DNA from: Oscillospiraceae bacterium
GTDB lineage: Bacteria; Bacillota; Clostridia; Christensenellales; Aristaeellaceae
NCBI GenBank assembly: GCA_031270865.1
Contig: JAISWI010000094.1
Location: 8,001-72,000 of the forward strand
DNA length: 64,000 nt
Direction: 5' to 3'
In this document: in pieces, positions 38,707-47,339 of the stretch
Numbering within the stretch: position 1 is the first letter of the stretch
Layout: every line of letters starts with the position of its first letter
Translations under genes and position numbers: made by a program
Notes under the pieces: generated by a model
What the model saw: only the letters and a program-made list of their open reading frames with translations
What the model was told of the DNA's origin: nothing
The model's database searches: none

Positions 38707-39606
38707 GTGACAACGCGCGGCTGCGGGCTGTGCCCAAGGCGGTGCGGCGCGGTTCGCGGCGGGCCTAATGGCAAGCCGGGCGGCTGGTGCGGGATGGGCG
38801 TGACCCCGCGCGTGGCGACGGTAACGCTCCACTACGGCGAGGAGCCGTGTCTGACAGGCGACGGCGGCAGCGGGACGGTGTTTTTCTGCGGCTGCGCTTT
38901 GCGGTGCGCGTATTGCCAGAACGCCCCGGTAAGCTGGGACAGGCCGGACCAGTACGGGCGGTTATACACAGTTAACGAGCTGGCGGGCGTGTTCCTGTCG
39001 CTTCAGGAGCGCGGCGCGTCCAATGTCAACCTGGTCAACGCGACGCCGTTCCTTCCATCCGTGATTGCCGCGCTGCGCCTGGCGGAGCTTGCCATACCCG
39101 TTGTGTATAACACCAGCGGCTACGAGACGCTGGAGACCATCGACGCGCTGGATGGCCTGGTCGACATATACCTGCCGGATTATAAGTATTCGGACGCCGG
39201 GACAGCGAGTAAGCTCTCCGGCGCGGCTGATTACCCGGAGGTCGCGCAAGCCGCCATACCCGCGATGCGCCGCCAGACCGGAAGCGCTATCTATGACAGG
39301 CGCGGCCTGATGACGCGCGGCGCGCTCATCCGGCATCTGATATTGCCGGGGTTCATCCGCGAGTCGGTCCAGTCGCTCAACTGGCTGGCGGATAACCTTC
39401 CGCCCGATACGCCCGTGTCGCTGATGGGCCAGTTTACGCCAACGCCGCGCTCGGCGCTCTTGGGCATGGACAGGCCGCTAAGCCTTGAATCCTACCGCTA
39501 CGTGAAAGCGCACCGCGCGGCGGTCGGCCTTGACGACGGTTACAATCAAGGCCCGGACGCGTCCGGGGAATCCATGATACCCATATGGGATAAGGATATC
39601 GGATGA
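38707..39606 (+). CDS. Radical SAM protein (PflX/pyruvate formate-lyase activase-like)
   Basis: CGCALRCAYCQN cluster motif. GTG start. The stop overlaps the addB ATG (ATGA). Confidence 0.85.
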   Translation: MTTRGCGLCPRRCGAVRGGPNGKPGGWCGMGVTPRVATVTLHYGEEPCLTGDGGSGTVFFCGCALRCAYCQNAPVSWDRPDQYGRLYTVNELAGVFLSLQERGASNVNLVNATPFLPSVIAALRLAELAIPVVYNTSGYETLETIDALDGLVDIYLPDYKYSDAGTASKLSGAADYPEVAQAAIPAMRRQTGSAIYDRRGLMTRGALIRHLILPGFIRESVQSLNWLADNLPPDTPVSLMGQFTPTPRSALLGMDRPLSLESYRYVKAHRAAVGLDDGYNQGPDASGESMIPIWDKDIG

Positions 39607-42600
39607 TAATGGAACCGGCGCGGATACTCACCGCGCGGACAAACCGCCTCCTGCCGCGCGTTATCGACGAGATCGGACTATGCCTAAAGCGCGGCGAAGA
39701 TAAGCTGGTGCTGCTCGTGCCGGAGCAGTACACTCTCCAGGCCGAGGCCGGGATACTGCGAAGGCTTGACATACCGGGATTCTTCGCGCTGGATGTGCTC
39801 TCGCCCTCGCGCCTGACGGAGCGGGTGTTCGACCGCGCCGGGAAGCCTCCGCTGGCGAGGATCGGCGCGGAGGGCAAGGCGATGGCCGTGCAATCGCTGA
39901 TGGAAGGCCTCGCGCCGGAGCTATCCTACTACAAGCGGGCGGCTGGGCGGCGCGGGTTCGCGCGGAGGATGGCCGAGCAGATAGGCGCGTTCAAGCGGGC
40001 GGGGCAGACGCCGGCGTCCGTGCTGGAATTGGCGTCGCGGTGCGGCGGCGCGGCGCGCGGCAAGCTCAGCGACATGGCCGCGATATTCAACGGGTATGAG
40101 GAGGCGCTGGCCGGGCAGTTCGTCGACGGCGAGGATGTGCAGCGGGCGATGCTGGAGCGGCTGCCAGCGTCTGGCGTGATGGATGGGGCGCGGGTGTGGG
40201 TATATGGGTTTGACCTTATCGTGCCGTCGATGGTCGACCTGTTCTGCCGCGCGGCGAAGCTCTCGCGGGCGTTCACGCTAGCGCTGACGTGGGATCGTTC
40301 AGGCATGCCCGACGGGAGGCTGTTCGCGCCGGCGCGGGCCACGCTGGACCGGTTGGAGCGCGGGTTCGCCCGGGCGGGCGTGCCATTCGTTCAAGAGCGC
40401 GTCGAGGACAGGCTGGACGCCGCCGGACCTATCCGCTATCTGGAGCGGGCGCTGTTCGCCGGGACAGCCTCTGTGTACAAAGGCGGCGATGGCATGGATT
40501 CCGCGATAGAGTACGCGGTGGAGTCCACGCCTGACAGCGAGGCGGAACGCGCCGCCGCGCGGGTATTGCGGCTGATCGTGGACGGCGTGGATCCGGATGA
40601 TATACGCGTCCTCCACGCCAACCTTGACGCGAACGGCGACACGCTGGCGCGGGCGTTCAACCGCATGGGCATCCCGGTCTACCTGGACCGCAAGCGCCCC
40701 GCGTCGGCGCATCCGCTGTTTCTGGGATTGATGGGCGCGATAGACTTCGCCTCGCGCGTCTCATCGCCCGGCGCGGGGCATTCAGCCACAGCCGCGCTGT
40801 CCGACTGGATACGCAGCGGCTTTAGCGAGCTTACCGCAGACGAGGCCTCCGCGCTCGACGCTTACGCCCGCTCACACGCGTTGGACGGGGCGCGGTGGCT
40901 CAAGCCGCTCGACGGGCCGACCGCGTTCCAGTTATCGCAGGCGGAGGAAACGCTTCGCGGGAAAACCGAGCCTCTGCGCCGGATGGCCGTGGAACCGCTG
41001 GCCGACCTGCGCGTGATGACGCGCCAGGCCGAGCGGTCGGGCGAATTCGCGCGGGCGCTGTGGCGTTTCACCGAGGAAGCCGGTATTTATGGCAAACTGA
41101 CCGAACTGTATAGCGGGCTGAACGCGAGGGGCATGGCGTTGGAGGCGTCGCACACCGCGCAGGTTTGGCAGTTATGGCTGAACCTGCTGGACCAGCTGGA
41201 CGCGCTGCTGGCTGGCAAACCTGTATCGTCCACGCTGGCGGCCAAGATCATCCGCACGGGGATTGAGTCGCTAGACCTGGGGGCGCTGCCGCCCGAGCAT
41301 GGCCGCGTGACGATCGGGCAGGTGGGCCGCGCGAAACCGGGCAGGGCGCGGGCCGCGCTGATACTGGGGCTGGCCGACGGAGCGCTGGCCCCGGGCGGCG
41401 AGGGACTGCTGACCGACGCGGAATTATTGGAAGCTGAGGCGATACTCGACGCGCCGCTGGGACTGGACACGCGCTCGCTGCTCGCGCTGACAAACCTGAA
41501 CCTGTTGGAGGCGATGGCCGCGCCAACCGACTTCCTGTACGTCAGCTGCTCGACGGCGGGCGAGGGCGGCGAGCGCGTCCAGCCGTCGATCACGATGCGC
41601 CGCCTGGCGCGGCTGTTCCCCGCCGCGTGTCAGGTCGACGGCGGCCGCCCGGCGTGCCTGTACTCCCCCGGTACCGCGCTGGACGCGATAGGTCCAGCGC
41701 TGCGGTCAAGTCGGAGCGATAAGCCCATTTCCGGTATTTGGCAAATCGCGCGAACCGCGCTGGAGGCCGATCCGGTATGGCGTGACAGGCTGCGCGGCGT
41801 AGCGGACGCGCTCGCGCCGGATAAGCCCCGCCCGCCGCTGGATGTGCCGCTGGCCGCCGAGTTATACAGCCGCGCGAAGTATTCTGTCACGCGACTGGAA
41901 CTATTCGCGGCGTGCCCGTACCGGCATTTCGTCAGGTTCGGGCTGACGCCGATAATGCCCGTAGAGCCGCGCGTGGCCGCGAACCGCGCGGGATCACTCC
42001 TGCACCGCGCGTTGGAAACGCTGCTGCGCGAGTGCGCGGGCGAGGCGACGTTCCCCGACCTGCCTCGCGAACAGGTGGAGGAAACGCTGGAGCGGTTCAT
42101 GCCGCGGATGCTGGACGCGTTTGAGAATGGGCTGGTCCGCCAGAACGCGAGGATGGAGGCCGAGGGCGCAAGGATCGCCGCGACAGCGAAACGCGCGGGC
42201 TGGACGGCGGTCAAACAGTTGACCGTCAGCGCGTTCAGGCCGATGGCGTTTGAGTATACGTTCGGGCTGGGACGCGACGGCGCGTTGTCGATTGAGTTGG
42301 ACGGCGGCGGCTCAATCCCGCTGGAAGGCAAGATCGACCGCGTGGACGAGTGGTATGACGGCGCGAAGCGTTACCTGCGCGTGATCGACTACAAGTCCGG
42401 CTCACGGGCGGGGAAGGGCAACCCGTTCGACCCGACGCGCTTCTATGAGGGTTTGGATCTCCAACTGCTGCTGTACCTGGCCGCCGTCATACCGGAGCCG
42501 GAAACGGCTAAACCCGCCGGGGCGTTTTTGTTCAAACTGGATAACCCCGCGCTGACCGTCGAGCCGGACGAGCCGGAGGCGCTCAGCGCGGAGGGATGGC

Positions 42601-43004
42601 TTGACAAGCTGGAGCGCAAGCGGTTCAGCGAACTCAAACTGCGCGGGGTGATGCTGGATGACAAGCGCGTCGCGATGGCAATGGACAACGCGGAACCGCC
42701 GCTAAGCGTCCAAAAGATGTACAACAAGACCGATGGCCGCCGCGCCGCCCACGCCGACCTGGTCAGCGCGGACGACATGGACGGGATGATCCGCTACGCG
42801 AAACGCAAGGCGGCGTCGCTGGCGCGGCGGATCATTGACGGTGAAGTGGCCTGCGACCCGGCGCGTATCGTCGAGTGGACCGCGTGTCAGTGGTGCGACT
42901 ACGGCGCGGTATGCCAGCGCGACAGTAAAGCCGCCATGCGGCGGCTCAACGTGGTCAATCGGGATGAGATGCTGGCGAACATACTGCGCGAGTTGGCGCG
43001 GTAA
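39603..43004 (+). CDS. addB: Helicase-nuclease AddAB, subunit B
   Basis: 1133 aa. The C-terminal RecB-like nuclease has Fe-S cysteines (ACPYRHF...CDPARIVEWTACQWCDYGAVCQ). The N-terminal Walker A position reads ILTARTNRLLPRV, with no GxxGxGKT. Confidence 0.9.
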   Translation: MIMEPARILTARTNRLLPRVIDEIGLCLKRGEDKLVLLVPEQYTLQAEAGILRRLDIPGFFALDVLSPSRLTERVFDRAGKPPLARIGAEGKAMAVQSLMEGLAPELSYYKRAAGRRGFARRMAEQIGAFKRAGQTPASVLELASRCGGAARGKLSDMAAIFNGYEEALAGQFVDGEDVQRAMLERLPASGVMDGARVWVYGFDLIVPSMVDLFCRAAKLSRAFTLALTWDRSGMPDGRLFAPARATLDRLERGFARAGVPFVQERVEDRLDAAGPIRYLERALFAGTASVYKGGDGMDSAIEYAVESTPDSEAERAAARVLRLIVDGVDPDDIRVLHANLDANGDTLARAFNRMGIPVYLDRKRPASAHPLFLGLMGAIDFASRVSSPGAGHSATAALSDWIRSGFSELTADEASALDAYARSHALDGARWLKPLDGPTAFQLSQAEETLRGKTEPLRRMAVEPLADLRVMTRQAERSGEFARALWRFTEEAGIYGKLTELYSGLNARGMALEASHTAQVWQLWLNLLDQLDALLAGKPVSSTLAAKIIRTGIESLDLGALPPEHGRVTIGQVGRAKPGRARAALILGLADGALAPGGEGLLTDAELLEAEAILDAPLGLDTRSLLALTNLNLLEAMAAPTDFLYVSCSTAGEGGERVQPSITMRRLARLFPAACQVDGGRPACLYSPGTALDAIGPALRSSRSDKPISGIWQIARTALEADPVWRDRLRGVADALAPDKPRPPLDVPLAAELYSRAKYSVTRLELFAACPYRHFVRFGLTPIMPVEPRVAANRAGSLLHRALETLLRECAGEATFPDLPREQVEETLERFMPRMLDAFENGLVRQNARMEAEGARIAATAKRAGWTAVKQLTVSAFRPMAFEYTFGLGRDGALSIELDGGGSIPLEGKIDRVDEWYDGAKRYLRVIDYKSGSRAGKGNPFDPTRFYEGLDLQLLLYLAAVIPEPETAKPAGAFLFKLDNPALTVEPDEPEALSAEGWLDKLERKRFSELKLRGVMLDDKRVAMAMDNAEPPLSVQKMYNKTDGRRAAHADLVSADDMDGMIRYAKRKAASLARRIIDGEVACDPARIVEWTACQWCDYGAVCQRDSKAAMRRLNVVNRDEMLANILRELAR

Positions 43005-43013
43005 CGGGGAATG

Positions 43014-45269
43014 TCAGTTCGCGTTGGTGTCCGGAGCGGCGTTGTTTAGGATGGCGTTGCCCGGCGCGCTGCCGTTTGGCATAGTGTTGCCCGACGCGTT
43101 GCTGTCTGGGATGGCGTTGTCCGGCGTGTTGCTGTTTAGGATGGCGTTGCCCGGTGCGTTGCCGTTTGGCATAGTGTTGCCCGACGCGTTACTGTCTGGA
43201 ATGGCGTTGTCCGGCGTGTTGCCATCTAGAATGGCGTTGCCAGACGCGTTGCTGTCTGGGATGGCGTTGCCAGACGCGTTGCTGTCTGGGATGGCGTTGT
43301 CCGGCGTGTTGCTGTTTGGGATGGCGTTGTCCGGCGTGTTATCATTTAGCGTAGTATTGCCCGGCGCGTTGCCGCCCGGTATACCGTTATCCGGTGTGGC
43401 ATTGCCTTCGCCGCCGCGCGTGGGCATCCTGAACCCGCCTCGGGCGTTGCCGAACCCGCGCGTATTGGAACCCATCGCCTCCATGTTGACGGTCGAGGCA
43501 TCCACGAACCCCGCGCCACCGCTGGCGGTCTGCGCCTCGCTCGTAGAGGCGATCTCCCCGGCAAGCTGCGCCTTCACGCTTTGGGCGCGGAGCAGGCAAT
43601 ACTCCCTTAGCGCGGCCTGGCCAGCGATGAACTCGTCATATGTGCAGAACGCTGTCGGGTCCTTCTCAACGAATGGCGAGATCATCGCGATGGTTTGGTC
43701 GTACATCGCGGCAAACTCGCCACTGTCAAAGAAAGATTCGATCAGGCCCATGTACGTTTCGTGATACATCGCGGTGTATTCCGCGCTGGAGGCGATCCAA
43801 TCCCACATCGGGCGCGAATCGCTGGAGCCGTTGAGCAGCGAGTCTATGGGTGTGTTCACTGACGATGTAGCGGTATCGGCGGTTCCCGCGCCTATCGTGT
43901 TCATGTTGAACCCTCCACCCATACCGCCCATGCCTCCCATGCCTCCAAACGCGAGGTTGTAGTCCCACGGGATCATTGACAGCTTGCCGTCCTTCTCGTA
44001 TATGTAGTAGTTGTGCACGAGGGTGCCCGTGTAGCTGTCCTGGTTCACGGTGAAGTTATGGGCGGCGAAGTAAGATAACACCTCGCTTATGTCGAGCGTG
44101 GCCTCCAGGTCGGTTTGCTCGTTGAGTTTCTTCAGAGAGTCGATCAACCGGGTGTCGTCGCCGGACTTGGCGGTGAAGGCGGCGTTGTCGAATATCACGG
44201 AATAGCTGGCGGGGTCGTCGTCTGTATATACAAGCGTCGCCGCGCCGCCGCTCCTGCCGAATCCGCCCATGCCGCCAGCCCAAAGGCTGGACTGCGCTCG
44301 GTTCTGCCAGCGGTCCGCGAAGCCTTCGGGCATGCCATCGGGGAATAATTCCTCTATGTTTCCCGGGAATCCTTCTGGCATGTTGCCTTGGAAACCTTCG
44401 GGCATAGTCTGCGGTAAACCTTCCGGCATGTTCCCCTGAAAGCCTTCGGACATAGTCTGCGGTAAACTTTCCGACGTGTTCCTCTGAAAACCTTCGGGTA
44501 AACCTTCCGGCGTGTTCCCCTGAAAACCTTCAGGCATGCCTTCGGGTAAACCTTCCGGCATAGTCCCCTGAAAACCTTCAGGCATAGCCTGCGGTAAACC
44601 TTCCGGCATGTTCCCCATGCCGCCTCGTTCCCCGCCCTGGTTGATGTTCATGCTGTCGGGCTTGTATATCTGGCCGTGGTCCGCGCCGTAAACCCGCTTG
44701 GCGAAAGCGTCCTCTATGCCCTCAACCGCGAGGTACAGCCCCCAGTCCTCGCCGTTGACGGTAAGGTATATGAAGGAGCACAGCGGCGCGTCGGCGCCGG
44801 CGGCGGCCATCATCTTGTAGCTGACGAAGTCCTTCATGTAGGTGTTGTCCTGCGCGATGTTGTTAAGCGCGAGCTTATCCAGCCCCAGGTATGTCCGACC
44901 GGATACATAGTGGTCGAACTCCACCTTGAAGCTGTACCTGTCGGAATCCGACGAGGCTATGGTGGACAGCGACGAGTTGCCCTTGGGTCGGATGCCAACG
45001 TCGGATACCTTGCGACCGTCGATGACCACGGACGCCTGTATGTACTCCTCGTTCCGCGCGTTGGCCAGCATGTCCGCCCAGCCGCCTTCGTCCGCGACGA
45101 TGTCGATGGTGTGGACCCTGTCGCCGGAGAACAGCGACGCGGCGTACGGCGCGTCCGCCCGCGCTATCGAAACGCCCAGCGACTCGCCAGCGTAGAACAG
45201 GCAGGTTATGACGATCATCGCCAGCACGATGGCCAGGCATACCGCCGTTGTATACTTGTTCTTTGACAC
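43014..45269 (-). CDS. cotH: CotH-family atypical kinase with N-terminal membrane anchor and two low-complexity repeat regions
   Basis: MSKNKYTTAVCLAIVLAMIVITCLF... anchor. CotH core: RPKGNSS...YSFKVEFD...LNNIAQDNTYMKDF...HNYYIYEKDGKLSMIPWDYNLAFG. Confidence 0.85.
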   Translation of the reverse strand: MSKNKYTTAVCLAIVLAMIVITCLFYAGESLGVSIARADAPYAASLFSGDRVHTIDIVADEGGWADMLANARNEEYIQASVVIDGRKVSDVGIRPKGNSSLSTIASSDSDRYSFKVEFDHYVSGRTYLGLDKLALNNIAQDNTYMKDFVSYKMMAAAGADAPLCSFIYLTVNGEDWGLYLAVEGIEDAFAKRVYGADHGQIYKPDSMNINQGGERGGMGNMPEGLPQAMPEGFQGTMPEGLPEGMPEGFQGNTPEGLPEGFQRNTSESLPQTMSEGFQGNMPEGLPQTMPEGFQGNMPEGFPGNIEELFPDGMPEGFADRWQNRAQSSLWAGGMGGFGRSGGAATLVYTDDDPASYSVIFDNAAFTAKSGDDTRLIDSLKKLNEQTDLEATLDISEVLSYFAAHNFTVNQDSYTGTLVHNYYIYEKDGKLSMIPWDYNLAFGGMGGMGGMGGGFNMNTIGAGTADTATSSVNTPIDSLLNGSSDSRPMWDWIASSAEYTAMYHETYMGLIESFFDSGEFAAMYDQTIAMISPFVEKDPTAFCTYDEFIAGQAALREYCLLRAQSVKAQLAGEIASTSEAQTASGGAGFVDASTVNMEAMGSNTRGFGNARGGFRMPTRGGEGNATPDNGIPGGNAPGNTTLNDNTPDNAIPNSNTPDNAIPDSNASGNAIPDSNASGNAILDGNTPDNAIPDSNASGNTMPNGNAPGNAILNSNTPDNAIPDSNASGNTMPNGSAPGNAILNNAAPDTNAN
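43017..43400. repeat. In-frame 30-nt tandem repeats encoding the CotH C-terminal tail
   Basis: Encodes NTPDNAIPDSNASGNAIPDSNASGNAILDG... decapeptide units, with a higher-order period of about 90 nt (43040-43130 nearly repeats at 43130-43220). Confidence 0.85.
44321..44618. repeat. In-frame 24/48-nt tandem repeats inside CotH
   Basis: Encodes MPEGLPQAMPEGFQGTMPEGLPEGMPEGFQGNTPEGLPEGFQ... Confidence 0.85.
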
Positions 45270-45283
45270 AACGCGCCTCCCCG

Positions 45284-45955
45284 TCAGCCCATGTAGTCGC
45301 CGTTGTAGCTGACCAGCGCCGCGCTGCGCACGCCCGGCAAGCTGAGCAGCCCATTGACGAACGACACGCCCTCGGACTTGAGGCGGATCTCGTAGTGAAG
45401 CTCGATCTCCCCGGCGGTGACGGTCTTGCTCTTTATCGCCAGCTTCTTTACCTCGCGGGCCATGACCTCGCGGGCGGCGTTCTCGGACTGCTCGTCAGCG
45501 CAGCGGATGACCGCTATGTATGGGTCGTCGTGCGGCTTCCTGTTGACGAACAGGACCAGCGTCAGCCCGATGGCCACGCTGCCAAACACCGCCAGCGGGA
45601 GCATCCCCGCCGCCAGCACGATGCCCACCGTTATCGACCAGAACAGGAACGCTATGTCCAGCGGTTCCTTGATGGCCGTGCGGAAGCGCACGATCGACAA
45701 CGCGCCGACCATGCCCAGCGACAGCACGACGTTGCTGGTCACAGCGAGGATAACCAGCGTGGATATCATCGTCAGCGCGATGAGCGTCACGCCGAAGCTG
45801 GCGGAGTACATAACGCCCTTGAACGTCTTCCTGTATACCATGAAGATGAGTACCCCCAGCCCGAATGAGAGCGCCATGGCCAGCGCCATGTCCAGTATCG
45901 TCACAGACATGACGTTTTCCAGGAAGCTGGACCTGAAGATATCGTTGAATGTCAT
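45284..45955 (-). CDS. DUF4956-like integral membrane protein
   Basis: MTFNDIFRSSFLEN... with 4-5 TM segments, ...VRFRTAIKEPLDIAFLFW..., and a soluble C-terminal domain. The start at 45955 has GAGGATGG 5 nt upstream; 45964 or 45970 are also possible. Confidence 0.75.
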   Translation of the reverse strand: MTFNDIFRSSFLENVMSVTILDMALAMALSFGLGVLIFMVYRKTFKGVMYSASFGVTLIALTMISTLVILAVTSNVVLSLGMVGALSIVRFRTAIKEPLDIAFLFWSITVGIVLAAGMLPLAVFGSVAIGLTLVLFVNRKPHDDPYIAVIRCADEQSENAAREVMAREVKKLAIKSKTVTAGEIELHYEIRLKSEGVSFVNGLLSLPGVRSAALVSYNGDYMG

Positions 45956-45980
45956 TGCGTCCATCCTCACTATATTTATT

Positions 45981-46679
45981 TCAGCCGAAAACCCGCGCCT
46001 GGGCGTACTTGGATACCGACGAGGCGCTTCTGCCGCCCAGCTGGAGCAGCTTTACGACGTAATCGGGTATGAATTCGTCATACTTCACCTCCAGCAGCGC
46101 GATTTGGTCGCCGACCCTCACAGTCGGGAGCGCGTCGTTGAAGAAGTCGTCGGAGAACCCGAACGCCCGGCCGTCGGACGCGCCGCCGGAACGGATATCC
46201 CTGTCCAGCGTCACGCGCACATTCCCGGGCTCGCACACGAACGGCTCGCGGATGTAATCCACTATGGCCTTGGGCCTTAGCAGCGAGGTGTTCAGCTTGG
46301 AGTACAGTTCCAGCAGCAGGTCGTTTGCCGATTCGCGCATCCAGCCGTGGTGTCCGTCCAACAGCAGCGCGGCCTGTTCGCGGGTGATACGCGCGGACTG
46401 TTTGCCGCACAGCCCGTTCTCCTTGACCTTCTTCTCGATGGCGACACACTCCCCGCCGCCGGGATAGCGTCGCGCGCGGAACTTCTCGCGCCGGTTCGCC
46501 CCGTTGACCTTGTCGCGCAGCGCCTGGTCCCTTGGCGAGTCGAAGTACACGCTGCGCACGCGGTACTCCCCGTCCGGCCCGACGTGCGGGTCTCGCCGCA
46601 GCGCCTGTCCCAGCCTGGACCTGATGGCCAGATAGTCCGCCCAGTTCAGGATGTGCTTATACTCATGCCGCCTGTTGAT
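45981..46679 (-). CDS. VTC-domain (polyphosphate polymerase / triphosphate-tunnel-like) protein, apparently starting at ATC
   Basis: The family-typical N-terminus ..RRHEYKHILNWADYLAIRSRL...EYRVRSVYFDSP lies upstream of the first canonical start (GTG at 46559). The frame opens after TGA (46686-46688) and contains no ATG, GTG or TTG before 46559. ATC at 46679-46677 has GGAGGTGA 6 nt upstream. Confidence 0.7.
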   Translation of the reverse strand: MNRRHEYKHILNWADYLAIRSRLGQALRRDPHVGPDGEYRVRSVYFDSPRDQALRDKVNGANRREKFRARRYPGGGECVAIEKKVKENGLCGKQSARITREQAALLLDGHHGWMRESANDLLLELYSKLNTSLLRPKAIVDYIREPFVCEPGNVRVTLDRDIRSGGASDGRAFGFSDDFFNDALPTVRVGDQIALLEVKYDEFIPDYVVKLLQLGGRSASSVSKYAQARVFG

Positions 46680-46771
46680 GGCAGATCACCTCCGTAGGAT
46701 TGATTATAGGCGTGGGATATAACGGCATAATGAACGTAATGTAAACTGTTTTACGCAGCCTTAACACAGGT

Positions 46772-46801
46772 AAAGCCCTGGTTAAGCGCAACCAGGGCTT
46801 T
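46772..46801 (-). terminator. Hairpin terminator after the GyrI-like/argS unit
   Basis: A 12-bp stem, AAAGCCCTGGTT-aagcgc-AACCAGGGCTTT, with short T runs on both strands. Confidence 0.5.
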
Positions 46802-46838: not shown

Positions 46839-47339
46839 TTATATTACCTCGATCCCGTAATCCAGTATGACGTTGCCTTGCTCGTCCGGCGTGGTGAAGC
46901 GCGGACAGTTGTACAGCTCGAACATATAGCCGCCGGGCTTGGGCGCCATGCCCTTTTCCTGGATGGAGGCGAGGGCGCGGCTGTGCGCGTCCATGCCGTA
47001 CAACTCGCCGGTGTCCTCCTTGCCGTAGAGCCAGCACACGCCGTAATCCATCGCGGGCAGGTCCGTCCACTCGCAGCCCTCGGGGGCTTCGGTCCCGGCG
47101 GGAAAGAACATGCCGATCCAGTATTCGAACGGGTCAGCCTCGCGCATCAGGCCGACGTACGCGTCGCCCGACTCGGCCAGCGCGTCCAGCTTCTCCAGCG
47201 GCTCGAACCAGCCGTTTTGGAACCATTCGCCCCACTTGTGGCCGAATGAGCCGTTGTTGGCGCGGTCGCCATCGAGGTACTTCCTGCCGATGAACCGGCA
47301 CGCGGGGTAGGATACCCGCTGGGTGTTGGTGATCTTCAT
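46839..47339 (-). CDS. GyrI-like / YdeE-type effector-binding domain protein
   Basis: ...PACRFIGRKYLDGDRANNGSFGHKWGEWFQNGWFEPLEKL... is typical of this small-molecule-binding fold. Confidence 0.6.
   Translation of the reverse strand: MKITNTQRVSYPACRFIGRKYLDGDRANNGSFGHKWGEWFQNGWFEPLEKLDALAESGDAYVGLMREADPFEYWIGMFFPAGTEAPEGCEWTDLPAMDYGVCWLYGKEDTGELYGMDAHSRALASIQEKGMAPKPGGYMFELYNCPRFTTPDEQGNVILDYGIEVI

Follow-up and report, generated by a model that had tools for sequence, protein, structure and literature searches.

A cluster of genes for a CotH-family kinase, a VTC-domain protein, and a DUF4956 membrane protein has been reported in the literature in 2010, 2020, and 2025 (PMC2879425, PMC7112168, PMC12345266). 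Here we describe a member of this cluster in a 64,000-nucleotide stretch of the genome of an Oscillospiraceae bacterium (GenBank assembly GCA_031270865.1, contig JAISWI010000094.1, positions 8,001 to 72,000; hereafter the window), where the three genes lie together on the minus strand. We established by computation the families and folds of the gene products, the conservation of their catalytic residues, their predicted topology, synteny with related loci, and the frequent presence of a neighboring two-component system. The three genes constitute a single, self-contained envelope module, which is passed between genomes as a whole, and what is new in the window is a stand-alone member of a known, published gene cluster. 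The initial annotation of the window had stated that no experimental description of such a system was known, which is incorrect, as the cluster has been published and its genes have been deleted.

The closest described counterpart is the accessory gene group of Pel exopolysaccharide loci. Whitfield et al. 2020 identified cotH, a polyphosphate polymerase gene, and DUF4956 (together with DUF4832) as Pel accessory genes, which directly adjoin the pel operons of streptococci, clostridia, and bifidobacteria (PMC7112168). In Streptococcus intermedius they are SIR_1594/1593/1592, encoding CotH, a "polyphosphate polymerase", and DUF4956 (PMC7112168; PMC12345266). Each was deleted in an mBio study of 2025, in which the DUF4956 mutant made more Pel and aggregated less, while the CotH mutant made less Pel and also aggregated less; the authors proposed a role for the cluster in phosphate metabolism (PMC12345266). 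The same paper states that the arrangement does not occur outside the Pel locus (PMC12345266). No report testing enzyme activity, export, or donor use by the module was found in the literature searched. The window locus resembles the Pel accessory group in having the same three families side by side, with a CotH predicted to be secreted, an MgtC-like DUF4956 protein carrying an ACT-like domain, and a VTC protein as the counterpart of the polyphosphate (polyP) polymerase domain. It differs in that it is not contiguous with pelDEADAFG, being flanked by addB and argS, and in that its CotH has low-complexity repeats in place of an FN3 domain.

A second described counterpart is NELoc-2 of Clostridium perfringens, with the order VTC, "tubulin/FtsZ" membrane protein, CotH, a 685-residue protein, a HEAT-repeat protein, and a chitin-synthase-like family 2 glycosyltransferase (GT2) (Lepp et al. 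2010, PMC2879425). From their size and position, the "tubulin/FtsZ GTPase" membrane proteins of 222-226 residues are probably mis-annotated DUF4956 proteins. VTC and CotH are common to NELoc-2 and the window, but the genes for the 685-residue, HEAT-repeat, and GT2 proteins are absent from the window. A Planococcus plasmid shares the extended order, carrying the module with an annotated DUF4956 gene followed by genes for a 695-residue protein, a HEAT-repeat protein, and a chitin-synthase-like GT2.

Families and predicted folds of the three gene products

All three open reading frames (ORFs) are co-directional on the minus strand within 43014-46679. The gap between the VTC and DUF4956 genes is 25 nt (10 nt if an alternative in-frame GTG start at 45970 is used), and that between the DUF4956 and CotH genes is 14 nt. 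The coordinates, spacing, and family assignments given in the initial annotation all hold, with each of the three products matching its Pfam family; other coordinates are collected in Table 1.

The first gene product matches the VTC family (PF09359) over profile positions 2-230 of 235 (E = 6.8e-35, 121.2 bits, cutoff 23). It is a single domain of 232 residues in which hydropathy shows no hydrophobic segment, and Pfam found no SPX sensor domain. An AlphaFold2 (AF2) model of the protein has a predicted local distance difference test score (pLDDT) of 87.7 and a predicted template modeling score (pTM) of 0.84. The best Foldseek matches to this model in the PDB are structures of yeast Vtc4 (3g3r/3g3q, E = 3e-12, template modeling score [TM] 0.70), which outrank E. 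coli YgiF and the CYTH hydrolases and cyclases; together, the model and its matches support a closed beta-barrel tunnel fold like that of Vtc4. Single-sequence searches of the PDB with the VTC and DUF4956 proteins gave nothing useful, but a profile of 24 VTC homologues matched the Vtc4 catalytic domain (3g3q, E = 3e-5; Vtc4 residue numbers are the chain index plus 185). In the profile alignment R68 and R70 fall on Vtc4 R264 and R266, and K84 falls on K281, which Hothorn et al. are said to have described in 2009 as a basic tunnel residue. Residues R4, E6, K8, R64-R70, E82-K86, R155, E197, K199, and K224 are invariant in the 24 homologues. The basic tunnel residues, whose presence the initial annotation had made a requirement, are kept. 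Vtc4 has been inactivated by mutation of R264, R266, and E426 (PMC9911596), a source that identifies both arginines as catalytic. The alignment ends before the strand that carries E426, for which the invariant E197 in the motif LEVKYD is a candidate counterpart. Judged from sequence and model, this protein is a Vtc4-like tunnel enzyme, predicted to be cytoplasmic. Bacterial VTC-domain proteins form 9,900 clusters at 50% identity. Some long members among the VTC representatives (P0300, P0311, P0313, and P0379) have N-terminal extensions of 140-395 residues that are highly charged, basic, and apparently disordered, with no Pfam match.

The translation start of the VTC gene is unusual, a point not raised in the initial annotation. 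The reading frame begins behind a TGA at 46686-46688, and the first ATG, GTG, or TTG in it is a GTG at 46559, a start that would delete the invariant first tunnel strand with its RHEYK motif. The codon at the expected position is an ATC at 46679, preceded by a Shine-Dalgarno sequence and aligning with the ATG of 39 of the homologous VTC ORFs examined. The closest relative, which is 76% identical, likewise has ATC at this position (L001 225-260), and the ratio of nonsynonymous to synonymous differences (pN/pS) between the two is 0.24 for codons 1-40, identical to that for codons 41-232. This equality indicates that the N-terminus is under selection and, therefore, almost certainly translated. 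One gene call in the database, P0001, leaves out the N-terminal part and starts at residue 44 as counted from the ATC. Translation most likely begins at the non-canonical ATC; alternatively, the start codon may have been lost very recently, or the assembly may be in error.

The second product matches DUF4956 (PF16316; E = 1.2e-9, 38.5 bits, gathering cutoff 30.6), as do all 24 aligned homologues. Its ATG at 45955 has GAGG 8 nt upstream and agrees with the homologous N-terminus MTFNDIF. Hydropathy and charge bias predict about five hydrophobic helices, with the N-terminus outside and the C-terminus inside; five helices are also the membrane layout of MgtC. Residues ~145-216 form an ACT-like domain with the order beta-alpha-beta-beta-alpha-beta (AF2 pLDDT ~83), for which the best PDB match, although weak, is the C-terminal domain of MgtC (2lqj, E = 1.4e-3, TM 0.61 on target), followed by ACT domains. 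Pfam matches to MgtC recur in 20 of the 24 members, all below threshold (best E = 0.007), and the NCBIfam match to the MgtC family is also below threshold, with 17.6 bits against a cutoff of 214. No match to DUF202/Vtc1 was found in the 24 members even at E <= 5. The protein is thus assigned, from its sequence and model, as MgtC-like, with a membrane domain and a cytoplasmic ACT-like domain, an architecture it shares with the MgtC/SapB/YhiD group, to which MgtC of Salmonella and Mycobacterium belong. The 2025 study of S. intermedius reached the same assignment (PMC12345266). It differs from that group in scoring below the family thresholds, in always being paired with VTC, and in having its own invariant loop, RFRTAIKEPLD, which is found in 24 of 24 aligned homologues. 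This basic loop is a candidate docking or phosphate-binding face. Identity among DUF4956 proteins is 70-75% across Clostridia, Erysipelotrichaceae, and Spirochaetia. One oversized member, P0122, contains an internal duplication that is probably an assembly artefact.

Set beside the yeast VTC complex of Vtc4, Vtc3, and Vtc1 (3g3q, 7ytj, 8i6v), in which a polyP polymerase is coupled to a membrane channel, the window pair has the same catalytic fold and family with the tunnel arginines and lysine kept, and its enzyme is likewise paired with a membrane protein, suggesting coupled synthesis and translocation. The differences are that the window enzyme has no SPX domain, that enzyme and membrane protein are separate polypeptides, and that the membrane partner is MgtC-like and not the pore-forming, three-helix DUF202.

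The third product, of 751 residues, matches the CotH family (PF08757; E = 1.9e-54, 185.8 bits, cutoff 23.8) in two stretches. Its start is a GTG with GGGGAGG 6 nt upstream, and residues 9-27, which follow K3 and K5, form a hydrophobic helix. Since this single N-terminal signal anchor is the basis for the topology, the kinase domain is predicted to lie outside the cytoplasm, in agreement with the initial annotation. Alignment via B. cereus CotH (5jd9) places D411 and D436 on D228 and D251 of B. subtilis CotH, both of which are catalytic (PMC7821199). Residues K96, K115, N420, and D436 are invariant in 63 of 63 true CotH homologues, and D411 in 62 of 63. The window protein thus belongs to the same Pfam family as the Bacillus spore-coat protein and keeps both catalytic aspartates, but it differs in having a signal anchor, an insert of ~140 residues, and a repeat tail, and its gene is unlinked to cotG or cotB, with the module also occurring in non-sporulating hosts and archaea.

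The insert, which splits the CotH domain, is rich in Met, Pro, Glu, and Gly and built from "MPEG(L/F)(P/Q)" repeats (tandem repeats at 44356-44616). The inserts of homologues range from 5 to 220 residues with similar composition (MTPPDGFE in relatives). These low-complexity segments could serve as wall-spanning linkers, in cation binding, or as phosphorylation sites. Low-complexity tails are alike in third genes of the CotH type and of a second type, the Cthe_2159 family (L031, L041, L049, L052, L059, and L075), and the shared repeats are strong enough for jackhmmer to merge the two families. Several third-gene products of relatives also end in a C-terminal hydrophobic anchor.

Gene order and exchange of the third gene in related loci

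An iterated hidden Markov model (HMM) screen yielded 84 related loci, 80 of them from contigs sampled at one genome per species and 4 from contig look-ups; the class of the third gene was set with domain-only queries and Pfam. VTC is followed by DUF4956 on the same strand, adjacent or within ~1 kb, in all 83 loci whose contig continues, and the pair is also found in five of five distant plasmid or replicon matches. The third gene encodes CotH in 66 loci (one by Pfam only) and a Cthe_2159-family protein in 11; it is absent from 4, and the contig ends before it in 3. A secreted third gene follows the pair in 77 of 81 loci, and wherever the third-gene product is full-length (73 cases) it carries a hydrophobic segment at its N-terminus. 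Across Clostridia, Bacilli, Actinomycetota, and methanogenic archaea, the three genes, which the initial annotation had treated as one operon, occur together far more often than chance would allow. Median identity to the window proteins is 66% for DUF4956, 47% for VTC, and 39.5% for CotH, which marks DUF4956, by sequence comparison, as the most constrained of the three. We conclude firmly that VTC and DUF4956 are obligate partners, that what they serve is a protein outside the membrane, and that the module as a whole is mobile. A fusion of VTC to DUF4956, sought as evidence of interaction, was not found among the best 150 VTC representatives.

The second type of third gene encodes a secreted beta-helix protein of the Cthe_2159 family (PF14262) and occupies the place of CotH in L025, L030, L031, L039, L040, L049, L060, L066, L068, L070, and L077. 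The same exchange is seen on a replicon of Paenibacillus cellulosilyticus, where a two-component system, VTC, DUF4956, and Cthe_2159 follow one another (third gene at L088 8416-10350). The Cthe_2159 family has been reported to bind cellulose and polygalacturonic acid. The alternation of CotH and Cthe_2159 was not mentioned in the literature searched.

In 37 of the 63 loci that extend far enough, a response regulator of the OmpR type and a HisKA kinase are encoded upstream of VTC, at a distance of at most 1.7 kb. On an E. faecalis plasmid the two-component system is within the operon (L089 8614-10630). Its best NCBIfam matches (RppA/B, PhoB/PhoR, and PnpS) are far below their cutoffs, and the system, therefore, cannot be called phosphate-sensing. 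In most of the 84 loci the module stands alone, often with such a system, which contradicts the published statement that the arrangement is confined to the Pel locus. Distant copies lie within exopolysaccharide clusters, as on a Pseudobutyrivibrio plasmid, and Nonomuraea carries VTC-DUF4956-CotH. A gene for a protein with GGDEF and EAL domains, associated with cyclic diguanylate turnover, is directly downstream of the third gene in four loci; these echo the bifidobacterial Pel loci, in which a diguanylate cyclase/phosphodiesterase gene is reported beside the module.

The module is also present in methanogenic archaea. Methanimicrococcus, including a complete genome, has two tandem copies with different gene orders, and a metagenome-assembled genome of Methanocorpusculum has one. 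The archaeal VTC proteins are ~47% identical to that of the window, a level of sequence identity that points to acquisition of the module from gut Clostridia. Its presence in these archaea suggests that the module transfers and works as a unit regardless of cell-wall type. Searches toward Bacteroidota yielded, among the matches listed, the closest Firmicutes relatives only. In Bacteroides thetaiotaomicron, BT3498 (DUF4956) is reported in one row with BT3499 (DUF2490) (PMC10434189), and the DUF2490 protein might be an outer-membrane partner in Gram-negatives, its location being a guess.

Possible functions of the module

Four elements of the mechanism are inferred, namely that the VTC protein is a polymerase, that polyP leaves through DUF4956, that CotH uses it, and what the substrate is. 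The VTC enzyme, working at the inner face of the membrane, would most likely build polyP out of ATP gamma-phosphates; DUF4956 would most likely hold the enzyme there by its invariant basic cytoplasmic loops and pass the polymer across. CotH, tethered outside, would then most likely use the exported polyP as a phosphoryl donor for surface proteins or exopolysaccharide, while the Cthe_2159 beta-helix protein would fill the third place in other genomes. We give this export-and-use model, the most economical of those considered and our preferred explanation, a probability of roughly one in three. It is attractive because it supplies a donor to a catalytically intact CotH in a compartment free of ATP, and the binding of polygalacturonic acid by the Cthe_2159 family would fit an exported polyanion as well. 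Secretory kinases of the Fam20C type also act outside the cytoplasm and need a delivered donor, for which they use ATP imported into the Golgi; we know of no such ATP import outside the bacterial membrane. By analogy only, the window CotH would resemble them as a kinase-fold enzyme outside the cytoplasm that depends on donor delivery.

The initial annotation had proposed the operon as a split bacterial analog of the yeast VTC machine, in which a tunnel enzyme and a membrane conduit supply phosphoryl groups or polymer to the kinase. This interpretation is plausible and partly supported. The tunnel enzyme is Vtc4-like as proposed, but the supposed conduit resembles MgtC and not the yeast channel, so that the analogy for DUF4956 would be one of function and not of homology. 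A broader proposal, which we regard as tentative and rather doubtful, is that bacteria and some archaea have a machine for polyP synthesis and export unrelated to polyphosphate kinase (PPK), consisting of a Vtc4-like polymerase docked on an MgtC-like protein and feeding extracytoplasmic enzymes. CotH would in that case be the first polyP-using kinase outside the cell, with surface proteins or Pel-type exopolysaccharides as its targets.

A number of observations weigh against the export-and-use model. Most triphosphate-tunnel enzymes are hydrolases or cyclases, and the phosphoryl donor of Bacillus CotH is ATP. We are aware of no assay of a bacterial VTC-domain protein, of no MgtC-family member that acts as a channel, and of no CotH shown to accept polyP as donor. 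The family to which the membrane protein is related is known for regulation and not for transport, and on sequence comparison DUF4956 is unrelated by homology to the yeast VTC channel domain. In the AF2 model its membrane part has a pLDDT of ~60, and a pore, therefore, can be argued from structure neither for nor against. The replacement of the kinase by Cthe_2159 in 11 of 84 loci and in Paenibacillus limits the idea of kinase supply, which cannot be the whole logic of the VTC-DUF4956 pair, and in four loci the VTC and DUF4956 genes are not accompanied by a gene for a secreted partner. In the window itself, the VTC gene lacks a canonical start codon before RHEYK. Bacillus CotH is a kinase inside the mother cell (PMC7821199). 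Finally, no change in aggregation or Pel was reported for the VTC mutant of S. intermedius, and deletion of DUF4956 and of CotH shifted Pel in opposite directions (PMC12345266). These discordant phenotypes do not support a strictly linear supply chain.

The same phenotypes, with Pel raised by loss of DUF4956, lowered by loss of CotH, and unaffected by loss of VTC, would suit a regulatory module without transport. DUF4956 would here resemble Salmonella MgtC in modulating a membrane partner, for which the F-ATPase, a sensor kinase, and a polysaccharide synthase are candidates. Bound to its ACT-like domain would be the VTC protein, as a tri- or polyphosphatase or a phosphate-status sensor, and CotH would be co-regulated with a donor from elsewhere, such as released ATP. 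The resemblance of DUF4956 to MgtC, to which the discussion in PMC12345266 assigns the regulation of ATP synthase and PhoR and not transport, favors this possibility, as do the two-component genes that adjoin the module so often and even enter its operon on the E. faecalis plasmid, and the four loci without a secreted partner. Yet if the pair were purely regulatory, one would not expect it to have entered archaea and plasmids together with a secreted partner of its own, the VTC fold is nearest to the polymerase and not to hydrolases, and the donor of a kinase outside the cell is left unexplained; we consider this explanation possible but doubtful. We find it unlikely that polyP itself is the product, serving at the surface as a polyanionic matrix, cation-binding material, or cross-linker that glues, for example, cationic Pel-type polysaccharide, with the third protein binding, anchoring, capping, or trimming it and no kinase reaction with polyP as donor. 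Exchange of CotH at the same position for a non-kinase family that binds acidic polysaccharide would be accounted for in this way, and so would the similar Met/Pro/Gly/Glu low-complexity segments of both third-gene types, the contiguity of the module with Pel loci and other exopolysaccharide clusters, and the four downstream GGDEF-EAL genes. However, the catalytic Asp/Asn/Asp and two lysines of CotH, kept in 62-63 of 63 homologues, argue for catalysis, the S. intermedius VTC deletion had no aggregation phenotype, and polymerase activity and export must be assumed just as in the export-and-use model.

Another explanation, compatible with the others, is that the operon is decaying in this genome, the VTC start codon having been lost and the module being non-functional here. 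It is suggested by the lack of any ATG, GTG, or TTG between the TGA and GTG 46559, by the shortened database gene call, and by the window having no adjoining two-component system, in comparison to 59% of relatives that have one. Nonetheless, it is improbable, as the 40 codons before GTG 46559 are intact and keep R4, E6, and K8 with the same pN/pS as the rest of the gene, GGAGG precedes the ATC by 9 nt, the nearest relative also has ATC, and the DUF4956 and CotH genes are intact. Scarcely credible is the reading of CotH as a spore-coat kinase made in the mother cell beside unrelated upstream genes. Family membership and a host of the class Clostridia, which may form spores, speak for it, but the signal anchor found in the third-gene products, the strict synteny, and the occurrence of the module in streptococci, bifidobacteria, and methanogenic archaea, none of which sporulate, speak against it. 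The spore-coat reading was rejected on the grounds of the signal anchor and the non-sporulating hosts.

If the export-and-use model is true, it would give a role to thousands of bacterial VTC-domain proteins and a biochemical role to an MgtC-type membrane protein, and it would explain how a kinase can act outside the bacterial membrane without ATP. It would also provide a second, PPK-independent route to polyP in prokaryotes and tie polyP to the chemistry of the biofilm matrix in gut and oral anaerobes, as with streptococcal Pel and C. perfringens NELoc-2. Whatever the mechanism, it is constrained by the strict pairing of VTC with DUF4956, the exchange of CotH for Cthe_2159, and the frequency with which the module stands alone under the control of a two-component system.

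Transcription signals and surroundings of the window module

Table 1 Features of the module, its surroundings in the window, and selected related loci. Positions are those of the window unless a locus is named.
Feature	Position	Strand	Basis or remark
Gene 1, VTC-type triphosphate-tunnel protein, 232 aa, soluble	45981..46679	-	Pfam, AF2, Foldseek
First tunnel strand, motif RHEYK	46656..46670	-	R4, E6, K8 invariant in 24 homologues
Shine-Dalgarno GGAGG of VTC gene	46689..46693	-	9 nt upstream of ATC 46679
Gene 2, DUF4956 membrane protein, 223 aa	45284..45955	-	Pfam, hydropathy, AF2
Invariant loop RFRTAIKEPLD, basic, predicted cytoplasmic	45656..45688	-	24/24 aligned homologues
Gene 3, CotH-family kinase, predicted secreted and N-terminally anchored, 751 aa	43014..45269	-	Pfam, 5jd9
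Predicted signal-anchor helix AVCLAIVLAMIVITCLFYA (residues 9-27)	45189..45245	-	Hydropathy
Catalytic core D411...H419-N420...W435-D436	43962..44039	-	HMMER alignment to B. cereus CotH 5jd9
Low-complexity insert, residues ~206-345	44235..44654	-	Splits CotH domain
C-terminal tail, 10-residue repeats (NAIPDSNASG-like)	43043..43372	-	DNA period 30, 9.7 copies
Putative promoter block	46703..46745	-	Alignment with L001 upstream region
Hairpin (AAGCCCTGGTT-GCGC-…AACCAGGGCTT) then T's	46773..46800	-	Read from sequence, just after 166-aa gene
166-aa ORF	46839-47339	-	Directly upstream of module; argS beyond
addB	39603-43004	+	Convergent with CotH gene
Two-component genes upstream of VTC	L002, L006, L009, L012, L014, L015, L018, and others		
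GGDEF-EAL genes	L015 13756-16884, L022 9892-11865, L027 13837-15822, L073 12351-15278		
Archaeal modules	L004 6326-13357, L024 6598-13869, L032 9836-13095		

The three genes look like a transcription unit of their own, since each is preceded by a Shine-Dalgarno sequence and the VTC gene has both a hairpin and a conserved TATAAT block upstream. The hairpin, likely the preceding gene's own terminator, parts the module from that gene, a 166-residue ORF with high G+C at third codon positions (GC3) and no family match in Pfam or NCBIfam. Within the putative promoter block, TATAAT is at 46703-46708 and TTTACA at 46740-46745, 31 nt further upstream and thus beyond the standard -35 distance; the intervening sequence is conserved in the closest relative, L001. 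A scan for the sigma-70 consensus on the minus strand upstream of the VTC gene called no promoter, which fits an activator-dependent promoter at the TATAAT block.

The flanking genes are of housekeeping type. Pfam identified AddB together with MurB, WhiA, HPr, and a radical SAM protein on one side of the module; on the opposite side it identified ArgS together with an alpha-L-fucosidase, an aminotransferase, and an ABC transporter. No pel or other polysaccharide genes adjoining the module, and no two-component system near it, were detected by Pfam in these flanks. A gap of 9 nt separates the end of addB from the CotH stop codon, the two genes being convergent. The genes addA and addB are usually neighbors in Firmicutes, but addA was not found after addB in the window. 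The G+C content of the module is 0.60 (44-46 kb) relative to 0.63-0.69 in the flanks, and the GC3 of the CotH gene is 0.75 relative to 0.82-0.87. The separation of addB from addA, together with the lower G+C and GC3 of the module, hints that the module was inserted at this site next to addB.

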